Shown here piece by piece: positions 2,656-57,440 of a stretch of DNA of 64,000 nt. The position numbers and the translations under genes are program-made. The notes below the pieces were generated by a model that saw nothing but the letters and a program-made list of their open reading frames with translations, was not told the origin of the DNA and did no database searches. The DNA comes from Octopus vulgaris (taxonomy: Eukaryota): contig OX597819.1 of assembly GCA_951406725.2 (NCBI GenBank), positions 85,622,001 through 85,686,000 of the forward strand, written 5' to 3'. Numbering within the stretch: position 1 is the stretch's first letter; every line of letters starts with the position of its first letter.

Positions 2656-2795
2656 ATAAAAATAGGGTTCAGTAAATTATTTTACTGAACCCTATTTTTA
2701 TAATGTAATGTTTCAAATATACCGTAAATGGTCTTTTTACATACTGAACACTACTTGGTAAAATTAATTAATAATTAATTAGTTTTACCCTTTTA
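2656..2795. mobile_element. Short (TA)n-embedded element fragment beginning with a 21-bp hairpin; same family as 24365-24500, 27340-27535 and 57060-57440
   Basis: ATAAAAATAGGGTTCAGTAAA-TTAT-TTTACTGAACCCTATTTTTAT stem. The downstream TTTTACATACTGAACACTACTTGGTAAAATTAATTAAT matches the other copies. (TA)n lies on both sides. Confidence 0.6.
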
Positions 2796-3084
2796 TTATT
2801 GACTATATATATATATATATATATATATATATATATATAAATATAAAGGTACTGCCTGCCACTTCGTAACAATCCCTATCATTATCATTATCCATATACA
2901 TATATGGAGCAAATAATTCACGAGAAAAAATAATTAAATAATTCACCAAAGATAATTTGCGAAGATATCGTTAAATCTGTTATTATCTGGTGTAACAATT
3001 TAAAAAGATAACAGAATCAATAATGTAGACGATTGCAGGCCCTCATACATCATCTTCAACGGGAAAGTCAGTCATATACAGGCT

Positions 3085-3415
3085 AAAGACCCCCTTCGGT
3101 CATGTGTAACCATGGCATTACAGCTAGAAAATTACCATCTGAGGCACAAGTCCCGGCATGGTTGTATATGAAAGACCAGCAGTCGCTCACGAATATCAGG
3201 CTCTCCTCTCCTCACCACCGATTTTGTTCAAGGGAAAGGCAAAGGCCGATATAGCCTGGCCCCAGTGACATCACAGCTCATTTCTACAGATGATTGAACT
3301 GGAGCAACCCGAACTATAGTGTTTTGCTCAATAACACAACACAGCCCGATCCGAGAATCGAACTCACTACCTCATAATTGTGAGCCCGACGCTCTAACTA
3401 CTGAGACATGCGCCT
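3085..3415 (-). mobile_element. tRNA-derived SINE
   Basis: Reverse strand begins GGCGCATGTCTCAGTAGTTAGAGCGTCGGGCTC...GTGAGTTCGATTCTCGG, an A-box/B-box-like tRNA head, followed by a SINE body. Confidence 0.7.
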
Positions 3416-4644
3416 GCATACATATATAAATATACATATATATTGAAGTCGGTGGATAGACAGCTTTGTGTGTGTGTGTGTGTGGGGGGTGTACGCGTGT
3501 ATGCAACCAAGGAAAATGTCATTTTTGGCAACTCCTTTGTACATCATTGACATTCTTTGGACATCCTTGACATGGAGTAAGCCTGTTACTGCCCTATTAA
3601 AAGTATATATCTAACCGTTGGATTCTAACGCCTTTTGTTCAATACTTGCGAAATAAAAATCTGTGGCTAAAATTTTCTAAGTTGTGTTAACGTTTATGAT
3701 CTCCAGTTGTTAACCCGAAACCAATGATTTTCATATGTTTAAATATTTGCATTACTTTTATTATAATCCTCGATTAACGATTCTAGTATTTTGCCTTTAG
3801 GTTAATTCAGACTATCGATAATTTTAATGTAAAGTACCACGTAAAACTGTTCAGTGCCGACAAAATTTTATCGTTTCAAGTCATGTCTGTGTACATTTTA
3901 ATTTTAAATTAAATTTGCTTTTTTTCCTGGTAGTGTTTTTAAAATGACTACCAATGAAATCTAATTTTGAGCTAAAGAAATGCATATTTCAAAACGCTTG
4001 TTGTAAGATATCAATATGAAGCAGTACATTTTTTTTATACACTATCTCTGAATGCGGCCTTTACCAATTTTTTTTAATATATAACAATGGCTTAAAAACT
4101 GTGATTAGCAGTTAATAGTCAGTCAGCCACAATGTTTAGCTATGTTTTTTACATTTTAGTATAGCAATGACAATAATTATCTCCTCTGCGTCACAGACGA
4201 TTCTGTTATTATTATGTTATATCTGGAAATTATATGTGTGTGTGTGAATATATATATAAAACACATATAACACACACACACATATATATATATATAACAT
4301 TCACACATTCACACACACACACGCTCTCTCACACGCATACATATTATGTGTGTGCGTGTGTCTGAATTAGATTATAGAACATTTTAGCCACCTAACTACA
4401 CATAAAATGTTGACTTATTTTTGCTTGAAGTACCAAATTTATGGTCGCATTTATACAACTTGGTCACTGATAGGATTCCACTGCTTCTGTTGAAGATCAA
4501 ATACTGACGTTTTGGGAAGGCACAGGATATTTTCATTATAACCGTGAGTCTGATATGTAGTAGCTGTTTGACTTTGGACCTTTGGACCACTATTGCAACT
4601 GGACCAATTTTAGATTCAATTTCTCTGTTTCATAACACTGTATT

Positions 4645-5089
4645 GGGATCTTTTCGGTTTGAACGGCAGCTTTTTCTAGCGGCGTCATATGAAATTGTCA
4701 CCCATAATTATAACCCTAGTATCGATATATTGCATTTCAATCTGTTTTAGGGTTAGAGTTAGTTAGTGTTAGTTAGGGTTAGGGTTAGGGGTGGAGGAAG
4801 GGTATCTTTTTTCTTCACAAATGTAAATAAACCCAATCTGTTTCTTAAACGAGGGACATATTCATACAGCACAGAATGTTTAACTCAATGGACGTCATCG
4901 ATTGGTTGAAATTGCAGAAATTGAAAAAAAAAAAAAAAACAGCAAATATCTTACAAACTATAGAATTTTCTCAATAAAGCCAAGAGTAAAAGATGTTTTA
5001 TAAACACATTCTACCAGTATACGAAGTTTAAAATTTTTTAGTTACCTAGAAATTATGTTAAAAACTGCCGTTCAAACCGAAAAGATCCC
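4645..5089. mobile_element. MITE with 25-bp perfect TIRs, 6-bp TSD and an internal TTAGGG tract
   Basis: GGGATCTTTTCGGTTTGAACGGCAG ... CTGCCGTTCAAACCGAAAAGATCCC. TGTATT is duplicated on both flanks (4639-4644, 5090-5095). Confidence 0.9.
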
Positions 5090-6116
5090 TGTATTGTAAC
5101 AAACATTGAAAAACAAACCCGAAAAAATGATGTAAATTTGAAATATTTGGCCTCATATCAACTCTATAGACGTTTGCTATATAATAGGTAAAGAAGGTAA
5201 ACAAAGAAAGATAGATTAGAAATATGAAGTAACATGAAAAAACACATACGTACAAGCACATACGCACGGACACACACCCACACGCACACATAGAAGCGCG
5301 CGCACACATAATTGAATGTACGTAGTTTTGCATTTAGGTGTACTTCATGCAATACATGCAAGCTATGTTTCCATATTTACTAAATATGCCGCTATCATAA
5401 AAGAGGGAACTAGAGATATATGTTAGTAACTTTGAAATACAGATAGAGAAAACAGAAGAATCGAATCTAAAGTTCACTAACTGCGGTCCATATCAGAAGG
5501 TTAAATAGCAACAAAGCCATAACAGCCATAAGTTAAAAAAACTGAAATAACCATAGAAGTAAAGAAAATCCTGCCGAAGCATGTAAAATCTCACAACTGC
5601 TCTAGCAATAATTGAAAACTGAATATTAAAGCTTTCGTGTGGTTAAACTGAATTATCCCTTGATGTTACTACTTCAGTTTTAACGAAGTATAAAACCCAA
5701 GTCACTTGACAAGCAAATGCTAATCCAACACAACCCCCTCCCACCACAAATACAAACACACTTGCGAGCATGCACATGTGCGTGCGCCTGTACACACACA
5801 AACACGCGCACACATACTCACATGTACGAATGTATTTCGCTAATGATACAAGCAACTCCTTTCCGGAAGTTTTTCGAAAAAACGTAATTCTTTATAATTA
5901 ACAAGGTTGAATAAAGCACAACGTATCGCATTCTTTAATTTTCGTTTGGCTGAAAGGCTTTCAGTAATGTTAAGAGAAACCTATTCTTCTGTCATTCTTC
6001 ATATTTTGTTGTGTTATGTTCTAGCGCGTTATATCGTTCTTAAAAAAATAATTTTGCAGACAATCCCTTTGTGTACAACTCAGTTCGATGAGAATTTTAA
6101 TATTAACCATTGTGTA

Positions 6117-55939: not shown

Positions 55940-56226
55940 TTGAACTTCCGCAAATATCTATTAGAAAACAGAAAACGTTACATAGATGAGTGCCTAATCC
56001 TATGGACGCACACATTTAGACAACTGATAGATTTAAAAAATTTAATCAACAGCATAAACAATACTATTAACTTTCCCATGCAATACAGTAAACCTACTAC
56101 CATTCCTGGATATACTAACCATCAAAAGAAATAAAACCATTGAAACAGATATTCACTACAAACAGATTCTAAACAATAATTACTGTTCTCCTCATGCCAT
56201 CCCAAACACACGAAAAATAATACCCC
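55940..56226 (+). pseudogene. Penelope-like reverse transcriptase fragment, inverted relative to the GIY-YIG part
   Basis: KRYIDECLILW (YIDD-like), LPFLD, TDIHYK and SCHPKHTKNN.P motifs. Confidence 0.85.
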
Positions 56227-56584
56227 CTCGGCCACATACAGCGACAATGACATTCCAAAAGCTGGAGCAGTTTGAATGGGAAACGATGCTTCATCGATCA
56301 TATTCGCCAGACATTGCCCCATCTGATTATCATTTATTCTGTTGTCTTCAAAATCATTTCAATGGAAAAAGTATGAATAATGTAGACGAGGTCAGAACAG
56401 TACTGGAGAAGTATTTTTCGTCACGGACAAGTAAATTTTGGAAGAGGGGCCTTGCAAGTCTACTAGACAGATGGAAGAGTATTGTAGAAAATAGAGAGCG
56501 CATTTTAGTTTTAAAAAGAACTTTATCTTAATTTTGAAAAACAAATGAAATATAAAAACCGCATTATTTATGGGTTAACCCAAT
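56227..56584 (+). mobile_element. Mariner 3' fragment with right TIR
   Basis: RPHTA...WETMLHRSYSPDIAPSDYHLF...LLDRWKSIVEN, ending AAAAACCGCATTATTTATGGGTTAACCCAA. Confidence 0.88.
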
Positions 56585-56896
56585 GTATATATATATATAT
56601 ATATATATATATATATATATATATATATATATATATATATATATATATATATATATATATATATATATATATATACATACATATATATATATCAGTGGGA
56701 CTGAACCTAGAACCATGTGGTTGGCAAGCAAGCTACTTACCATATTACTCTACCACTGGTATTTGAGTACTCTTTTTTCCACCTTGTTTCACATTTGTGT
56801 GTACTCCGGTACATACATATATAGATATGTTTGTGCAAACAGGAAAAACAGAACTCAAAATGTGAGTATATCCATATTTGTTTTAGCAGAAGAAAC

Positions 56897-56946
56897 AGAG
56901 TGACTCAGGGTCCGAGAGTTTCGTGCGTTGGCACTTATCTAACTCT
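56897..56946 (-). ncRNA. Hammerhead-like motif with UAGAUAA core, within a ~55-bp-arm inverted repeat (56886-57001)
   Basis: AGAGU-UAGAUAA-GUGC-CAAC-GCAC-GAAA-CUC-UCGGACCCU-GAG-UC-ACUCU: all three stems pair and the triplet is GUC. Confidence 0.55.
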
Positions 56947-57059
56947 TGATAAGTGTCAACGCACGAAACTCTTGGACCTTGAGTCAGACTGTTACTTCTG
57001 CCTACTATTGACAATATATATATATATATATATATATATATATATATATATCAGTAATA

Positions 57060-57440
57060 ATATAGGGTGAAATTAATTAATTTGGAATAATCATTAATTT
57101 CACCAAGTAGATTTCGGCATGTAAAAGCCTCATTCGAGGAAAGTTTAAGTAATACTAAGTAATGTCTCAAACCCTGAAACTCACAATGAAAGACTTCAGG
57201 AACTAAAACAATTACCACTTAAAAGACAATCCATTAATGCTAATAGACAACGGAATAGAACGTGCCAAAACAAAAAAATACGAAGAACTAGGGAAAAGGA
57301 AAAGCTCTCCAGATAAGTTCAAGTAGAAAGAATAGATATAACCCTTTTAGTAAAAAGAATAGCTATAACTCTTTGACTGCTATTTCTAAATTTCGGTGTG
57401 TGGTGAGGCAAATCGTTGCTAAACCCTTAATTACTTAGTT
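57060..57440. mobile_element. (TA)n-embedded short element containing an inverted 162-bp copy of 55721-55882
   Basis: The flanking halves match the 24365-24500 / 27340-27535 family. 57161-57322 is the reverse complement of 55721-55882 with 2 mismatches. Confidence 0.85.

Follow-up and report, generated by a model that had tools for sequence, protein, structure and literature searches.

In a 64,000-nt stretch of the Octopus vulgaris genome (assembly GCA_951406725.2, contig OX597819.1, positions 85,622,001 to 85,686,000 of the forward strand; hereafter the window), seven fold-back structures lie against or inside TA microsatellites. We consider it likely that these hairpins are the 5'-truncated, non-coding 3' ends (pseudo-long terminal repeats, or pseudo-LTRs) of several families of Penelope-like elements (PLEs), and that they arose when a GIY-YIG endonuclease nicked both strands of a (TA)n repeat and the two resulting complementary DNAs (cDNAs) were joined. 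An earlier note on this DNA had proposed a Penelope-like origin, (TA)n targeting and hairpin formation at insertion, and all three are supported here by the anatomy of the elements, by TA adjacency in 7/7 fold-backs against 0/6 controls, and by canonical hammerhead cores in 3/7. The window has 34% GC and 14.8% simple repeat, with 64 pure TA runs of at least eight units.

A seed-and-extend scan of the microsatellite-masked window (seeds no more than 1,100 nt apart, score at least 18, loop no more than 120 nt) yielded exactly seven elements, the same seven as in the earlier note, and none in three Markov resamples. The score and loop cutoffs were set after the output had been inspected, and the fold-back at 2656 scores exactly 18. 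A self-comparison of the masked window independently recovered 7/7, so the seven structures are confirmed by both methods. They are listed here in window coordinates with three further insertions, which are inversions with little or no overlap; for the seven, the last figure is the distance from the outer arm end to the nearest TA run of at least five units.

2656-2803, plus strand: family F variant, 23-nt hairpin at 2656-2701 (22/23 arm letters paired) and 102-nt tail; (TA)n on both sides; no hammerhead found; 3 nt.
14757-15157, plus strand: near-perfect palindrome (the 14753 element; fold-back 14757-15067, 153/156 paired), apex at about 14912, and 90-nt tail; intact type I hammerhead core in the left arm; 6 nt.
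23901-25017, plus strand: compound fold-back (23917-24892), 438-nt arms with 2 substitutions, 100-nt loop, 125-nt tail; family F pieces both centrally (24295-24514) and at the right end (24908-25015); 16 nt.
27338-27538, plus strand: family F, missed earlier, no hairpin; inverted body and direct tail overlapping by about 10 nt; (TA)n on both sides.
31071-31170, plus strand: family G, missed earlier; 9-bp hairpin and 82-nt tail; sister of 52158-52417.
33858-34106, minus strand: older fold-back (33896-34106, 89/107 paired, loop included in the count), 47-nt loop, 36-nt tail; no convincing hammerhead; 2 nt.
37931-38850, minus strand: near-perfect 803-nt palindrome (38048-38850, 399/402 paired), apex at 38448/38449, 117-nt tail at 37931-38047; highly repeated family; 4 nt.
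52158-52417, minus strand: family G fold-back (the 52247 element; 52248-52417, 72/87 paired), 16-nt loop, 90-nt tail; (TA)n on both sides; no hammerhead found; 3 nt.
56831-57013, minus strand: older fold-back (56886-57001, 49/58 paired), 8-nt loop, decayed hammerhead-like core at 56946-56968, uncertain tail of about 55 nt; 12 nt.
57052-57440, minus strand: family F, with tail (57052-57160), inverted PLE-coding copy (57161-57322) and inverted body; (TA)n on both sides.

In silico folding of the hairpins is strong, a trivial outcome for inverted repeats. Loops range overall from 0 to 100 nt, with 1 to 4 nt in 3/7 (2656, 14753 and 38048) and 0 nt at 31071. The arms of 14753, 23917 and 38048 are more than 99% alike, as they would be if the near-perfect palindromes were sequencing or assembly artefacts such as chimeric fold-back reads, and among the read contigs listed for the region (most contigs are not shown) none spans the 38048 apex. 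We regard such an artefact as extremely improbable, given that substitutions separate the arms, that three other fold-backs have only about 84% arm identity, and that a biological anatomy with family-specific end points is common to all.

In all seven fold-backs, an outer end lies no more than 20 nt from a TA run of at least five units; the chance of this per element is 0.026 to 0.032, and the product is 1.5e-11. By comparison, none of six control inverted repeats with separated arms (score at least 18, including two mariner-like copies) lies within 20 nt of such a run, the nearest being 54 and 67 nt away, which bears out the observation that the fold-backs abut or sit in TA microsatellites. 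On the far side, TA extends for only 9 to 10 nt at 33896 and is decayed at 56886. The (TA)n insertion bias by which PLEs are recognized is thus seen in 7/7 fold-backs, and also at family J ends in four read runs described below. An insertion would divide a TA run into two, and target-site duplications (TSDs) are unreadable inside (TA)n, for PLEs and for miniature inverted-repeat transposable elements (MITEs) alike. Of 48 loci with at least eight TA units, 17 touch an end on a hand-made list of element ends, so that most microsatellites in the window are without such an element.

The elements share the layout (TA)n, inverted arm, direct arm with unpaired tail, (TA)n. The 3' ends face outward and the truncated ends meet at the apex, TA stands at the outer ends, and end points cluster. 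The unpaired extension is on one side only in 7/7, in keeping with the earlier description of an inverted pair plus one extension rather than terminal inverted repeats (TIRs) with TSDs. The inverted arms are head to head in all seven; polarity is set by a hammerhead in 4/7 and at 38048 also by a gradient of read depth, and we infer it for the three that lack a hammerhead. The order of body and tail in family F was read from a read-through copy at 24364-24514. The families had been described as unrelated. There are indeed several, but 2656 belongs with the centre and right end of 23917, in family F. In 272 sensitive pairwise comparisons, the only matches between families beyond the pair H and J and the known arm pairs were gappy and AT-rich (best p about 0.005 to 0.01), and relatedness beyond H and J was not accepted.

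Sister copies differ markedly. In family G, the arms measure 85 nt at 52247 and 9 nt at 31071, the tail being the same in both copies, and family F occurs as a 23-nt hairpin (2656), as an inverted body with a direct tail and about 10 nt of overlap (27338, 57052), and inside the 23917 compound. The fold-back therefore appears to be an outcome of each insertion rather than a fixed element, and the ten short insertions listed above span the range from non-overlapping inversion to perfect palindrome. Unequal arms also argue against MITEs, which have TIRs of fixed length at both ends, while here the arm lengths in families G and F vary and the tail lies outside the repeat. In the 23901-25017 compound, the junction between the family F tail and the hammerhead segment is present in both arms and the right end reverts to the family F body; this compound is either a tandem unit of about 600 nt or the result of template jumping between two families.

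The hammerhead-less hairpins (2656, 33896, 52247 and their relatives) could instead be TA-targeted non-autonomous DNA transposons, whether MITEs, Foldback elements or SaTar-like Mutator-like elements (MULEs), in which case the set would mix two classes. These three have neither a hammerhead nor a coding trace, TA-targeted non-autonomous MULEs exist in plants (PMC5907723), and a TA duplication would be invisible within (TA)n. We nonetheless hold this unlikely: copies of one family differ in arm length, a tail extends beyond the repeat on just one side, and the true TIR elements of the window (4645, 22194, 32950 and 39417) have separated terminal arms and are not TA-bound. Furthermore, Naiad PLEs share the anatomy yet lack hammerheads (PMC8557442).

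A hammerhead descriptor matched the window eight times at six loci, four of them with an exact core; ten resamples gave no exact core and zero to two one-mismatch matches each. Canonical type I cores are present in 3/7 fold-backs (14753, 23917 and 38048), all reading from the apex outward, and a decayed core is present in one more (56886). The 14753 motif is intact in the left arm (14888-14854, minus strand) and has a G12-to-A change in the right arm, that of 38048 is intact in the tail-bearing arm (38162-38084) and has a C3-to-U change in the other, and that of 23917 is intact in both arms (24724-24811, plus strand, and 24085-23998, minus strand). The sole substitution between arms in 14753 (14866/14958 region) and in 38048 (38162/38735) strikes the hammerhead core, both times in the plus-strand copy, and the two in 23917 lie outside the core; the rough post hoc chance of this coincidence, a hand estimate from small numbers, is about 0.01.

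Four fragments that do not fold back, which the earlier note had described as ribozyme-bearing and placed in (TA)n, belong to the mutually related families H and J.

30782-31012, plus strand: family H unfolded 3' fragment, hammerhead-like motif at 30885-30911 with a U4-to-C core.
34965-35155, plus strand: family J unfolded 3' fragment, hammerhead-like motif at 35021-35048 with an A6-to-U core.
38915-39096, minus strand: family J unfolded fragment, hammerhead-like motif at 39030-39007.
40590-40800, plus strand: family H unfolded fragment, hammerhead-like motif at 40663-40689.

All four exist, adjoin TA and have the hammerhead shape, but their cores are non-canonical (CCGACGA, CTGTGGA, CTGTAGA), and only two (30782-31012 and 38915-39096) have TA runs on both sides, those at 34965 and 40590 having a long run on one side only. 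In the stems of families H and J, 43 of 44 cells pair, and covariation is not above that of shuffles (252 of 500). A fifth relative, at 47747, is without TA flanks.

The window also contains one decayed PLE coding region.

55126-56227: decayed Neptune-type PLE coding fragment; reverse transcriptase (RT) thumb, zinc-finger-like linker and GIY-YIG on the minus strand (55921-55126), with the RT palm inverted on the plus strand (55931-56227).

This fragment matches protein P0001 with a tblastn E value of 3e-46. P0001 has a PF01541 domain and a CxxxxCxxC linker (CGRPNCGIC); the linker of the window fragment reads CGRPNYETC, the second Cys having been lost, followed by TCSS..YAIKCQGCNEDYIG. A C-terminal GIY-YIG, a CCHH motif and a CX2-5CxxC linker after the RT thumb mark the Neptune clade and are found in the fragment, whose predicted layout is that of Neptune/Nematis in PMC8557442. 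Among four long relatives of the fragment, RVT_1 is found in three and GIY-YIG in three. A profile from 151 proteins matches with positions 29-129 on the plus strand (55931-56227) and 126-394 on the minus strand (55921-55126); since these are contiguous across the strand switch, the coding fragment contains an inversion with contiguous breakpoints. Judged from sequence, this genome contains PLE machinery. For Octopus vulgaris, 31 Penelope-like families with recent activity are reported (PMC13282606), and Naiads occur in Octopus (PMC8557442). The 3' region of the fragment did not align with any hairpin family.

At the junction of the family F inversion listed at 57052, segment 57161-57322 is an inverted 162-nt copy of 55721-55882, 160/162 identical. 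Given this near identity and a common frameshift, its apparent source is the dead element 1.3 kb off and not an active master, with templated insertion or gene conversion as the route. Elsewhere, an old inverted repeat at 35411-37782, with 586-nt arms of 72% identity and low read depth, has its right end 100 nt from a (TA)24 run. Homolog, Atlas and Pfam searches and a profile comparison were all empty for the decayed frame in its spacer (36900-36175, minus strand). The motifs of this frame have a Penelope/Poseidon-like look that these searches did not confirm, and we do not claim a second PLE.

Contigs from four public read runs (X2, X4, X5 and X8, with four organism labels) were placed on 34964-39200, a region that covers one of the seven fold-backs, 38048. 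The family of this element is very highly repeated, and summed contig depth decreases by a factor of about 6 to 11 between the tail/hammerhead bins and the apex bin in 4/4 runs: from 745,254 to 69,259 in X2, from 434,863 to 66,312 in X4, from 72,941 to 9,167 in X5 and from 10,531 to 1,794 in X8, with flank depths of about 50, about 50, 6 to 11 and 2 to 9, respectively. Summed depth is not copy number, and reads matching both arms blur the gradient; a fall toward the apex is nonetheless expected under 5' truncation. At 38003-38107, one contig of 105 nt with 10 differences joins tail to arm in another copy, so the 38048 tail is family sequence. The family J 3' end runs into (AT)n in 146, 145, 98 and 53 contigs of the four runs (contig totals are not part of these counts). 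The window's own family J copy is without a long TA run at its 3' end, and this (AT)n continuation is the sole support for TA targeting from outside the window. Opposite-strand joints in 34964-39200 were rejected as fold-back evidence, as they connect two family J copies, and a metagenome-contig locus found by an exact 20-nt motif had only 25 nt in common and was treated as chance.

We propose that the insertions would form as follows. A GIY-YIG nickase would cut both strands of a (TA)n repeat, and the two nicks would prime two cDNAs, later joined head to head at their far ends. One cDNA would start at an outer RNA start site, at the tail end, and the other at an inner site, X. If the first halted at about X, the two parts of the resulting inversion would overlap little or not at all (27338, 57052); if it passed X, the arms would overlap by unequal lengths (23917, 33896, 52247); and a near-perfect palindrome would result where both cDNAs were extended to the 5' end of a single shortened RNA (14753, 38048). 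Some families would carry hammerheads with them, which are predicted not to fold when both arms are co-transcribed. More tentatively, the inverted ends of PLEs may reflect programmed twin priming, in which a dimeric RT-endonuclease would use both (TA)n strands and a fixed pair of RNA sites separated by about 100 nt, with CCT often lying about 10 nt upstream of the site. As the RNA would survive copying, one molecule could be read twice, and a single mechanism would then yield non-overlapping inversions, uneven hairpins and perfect palindromes. Post hoc, CCT lies 5 to 23 nt inside 7/15 family-level ends (background 0.15, p 0.004) and CCCT in 4/15 (p 0.0009); it is lacking in 38048, H and K, and could mark RT start sites. 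Among openly available papers on PLEs, we found none that uses a twin-priming model.

It is also possible, though doubtful as a full account, that the PLE origin is the same and the hairpin forms by self-priming, in which a strand folds over at a short palindrome and serves as its own template, as proposed in PMC3846280. Loops of 0 to 4 nt at 31071, 38048, 14753 and 2656 are as expected for this, as are the apex of 31071 on a TTATAA palindrome that is also present in its sister copy and the identical family F/Y junction in both arms of 23917, as if one had been copied from the other. Self-priming cannot, however, yield inversions whose parts overlap barely or not at all (27338, 57052 and the one in the coding fragment at 55921/55931), and loops of 47 nt (33896) and 100 nt (23917) are long for a snap-back. 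Both twin priming and self-priming may occur.

Host repair after insertion, with (TA)n cruciforms breaking and fold-back repair duplicating the adjoining DNA, offers a further route that we think very unlikely. AT repeats are reported to be fragile and fold-back inversions to form at breaks, and the local copy at 57161-57322 is evidence that neighbouring DNA can serve as a template. Against this, TA is at the outer ends and not at the apex, end points recur among copies of a family, and among 48 TA loci only these element ends fold back, while the SINE-like repeat (a short interspersed nuclear element) and unique flanks do not.

Several observations weigh against deriving the hairpins from PLE ends by double-strand nicking and the joining of two cDNAs. 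Near-zero loops suit fold-back self-priming equally, and the in vitro work on two-site initiation concerns a Poseidon-clade element that cuts ATT rather than a (TA)n-targeting Neptune. Weaker hairpins at 27789, 36139 and 36554 lie 179, 1,185 and 1,303 nt from a TA run, so the TA rule is limited to strong hairpins. Tails are 90 to 125 nt in 5/7, roughly threefold longer than the published 30 to 40 nt, and only that of 33896 is within the published range. No hammerhead was found by motif in 2656, 33896 and 52247, whose anatomy is what would place them among PLEs. Rfam gave no hammerhead match in the window at the gathering score, nor was a hammerhead family among the matches listed at E of 10 or less for two elements scanned singly; the window-wide list at that threshold, of which 150 of 422 entries were shown, is dominated by microsatellite matches to microRNA models. 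As Rfam calls none of the motifs, "ribozyme" is used here as a prediction. The 151-protein profile gave no credible PLE coding homology in the seven arms (the best independent E value, 0.052, is on the opposite strand to the hammerhead), so that none of the families is connected to an autonomous partner. Finally, the read contigs reach into the 38048 flank to 37872 and break at TA runs, with empty alleles beyond their reach.

Other repeats in the window include the TIR-bounded elements used as controls.

22194-22771 and 32950-33510: two mariner-like TIR copies, 90% alike.
4645-5089 and 39417-40150: TIR-bounded elements, one with 30-nt and one with 139-nt TIRs.

Family K (45131-45415 and 14538-14738) is ambiguous: one copy has 40-nt TIRs and a MITE-like look yet contains a CTGATGA box, and its sister has no such TIR and ends at the TA run beside 14753; it is possibly another PLE end. 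A Tc1-like transposase remnant lies at 1617-2099 (helix-turn-helix match PF13384, E 9e-9), and 10367-13060 (plus strand) is a decayed RT region like that of a long interspersed nuclear element (LINE), with Pfam empty for the single piece tested. An abundant SINE-like repeat is present in at least 10 pieces, including 9342-9893, 18383-18574, 34523-34706, 44063-44641 and 46904-47065, and three pieces stand in tandem at 6098-6699. At 61227-62294 there are two tandem copies of about 515 to 550 nt with 85% identity, each with a terminal (TATC)n, preceded by a LINE-like coding remnant (60901-61230).

For annotation, PLE ends of this kind resemble MITEs or microRNA hairpins and can be misfiled. If the inversion-to-palindrome series holds genome-wide, it would discriminate twin priming from self-priming, and if twin priming is true, the formation of PLE inverted repeats becomes testable from sequence alone in a genome rich in short copies. 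Links of the hairpins to microsatellite abundance and to double-stranded RNA would, if true, matter for host biology.

In L1 twin priming, a second primer from the other target strand leaves the 5' segment inverted, with a breakpoint that is near-contiguous; the second site varies and the arms do not overlap. The near-contiguous breakpoints at 27338, 57052 and 55921/55931 are alike in this respect, whereas the second site here is mostly fixed and arm overlap is common. The term appears in PMC3649969, PMC2246262 and PMC9148063, none of which is on PLEs as judged by title or the start of the abstract. How PLE structures come to be tandem or inverted is named as an open question in PMC8557442, as is the microsatellite bias.

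Among the closest known systems is the inverted pseudo-LTR with tail of endonuclease-containing PLEs (Penelope/Poseidon, Neptune, Nematis and Naiad; PMC8557442, PMC3846280), which has the same head-to-head truncated copy, often with a palindromic junction, a one-sided tail, and insertion in (TA)n without a readable target duplication. Craig et al. 2021 (PMC8557442) describe an inverted 5'-truncated copy, a 30- to 40-bp tail and a (TA)n preference, and Arkhipova et al. 2013 (PMC3846280) describe head-to-head palindromic junctions and a 31-bp tail along with the self-priming proposal. The window insertions differ in being so short that only non-coding ends remain, with an autonomous partner linked to none of the seven. 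Minimal PLE hammerheads, with opposite-strand pairs 100 to 700 bp apart, were described by Cervera and de la Pena 2014 (PMC4209133), and the type I motifs there resemble ours in their short or absent helix III, palindromic 15.2-16.2 positions, extra base before stem II (families H and J), mostly single dispersed occurrence and opposite-strand pairs. The U4-to-C and A6-to-U core changes of families H and J are not named in the accessible part of that paper, from which the stem II regions of 60 to 69 nt in 23917 and 38048 (by motif only) also depart.

A PLE protein nicks and extends both target strands, and the limits of the tail are set by two internal RNA start sites (Frangieh et al. 2024, PMC11167929). 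In this in vitro work on PAc, an Anolis Poseidon element, the two start sites match X and the tail-end points here; the enzyme prefers ATT, the tail is 30 to 40 nt, and inverted junctions are not modelled in the part of the paper available. Non-LTR retrozymes (bioRxiv 10.64898/2026.07.22.740005) are likewise non-coding, carry a type I hammerhead and derive from PLE pseudo-LTRs. Theirs are tandem repeats with a hammerhead in each unit, whereas the window copies are single or inverted. A retrozyme reading, which calls for at least two tandem hammerhead units, was rejected, there being no direct tandem of a hammerhead-bearing unit among the elements. The suggestion of a new general class of mini-elements does not stand, as this anatomy is already published for PLEs (PMC8557442, PMC3846280, PMC4209133, PMC11167929), and the consensus libraries of PMC8557442 and PMC13282606, Repbase or Dfam may already contain these families and longer tails. 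What is left as a departure from published PLEs is the long tails and the series running from inversion to palindrome.

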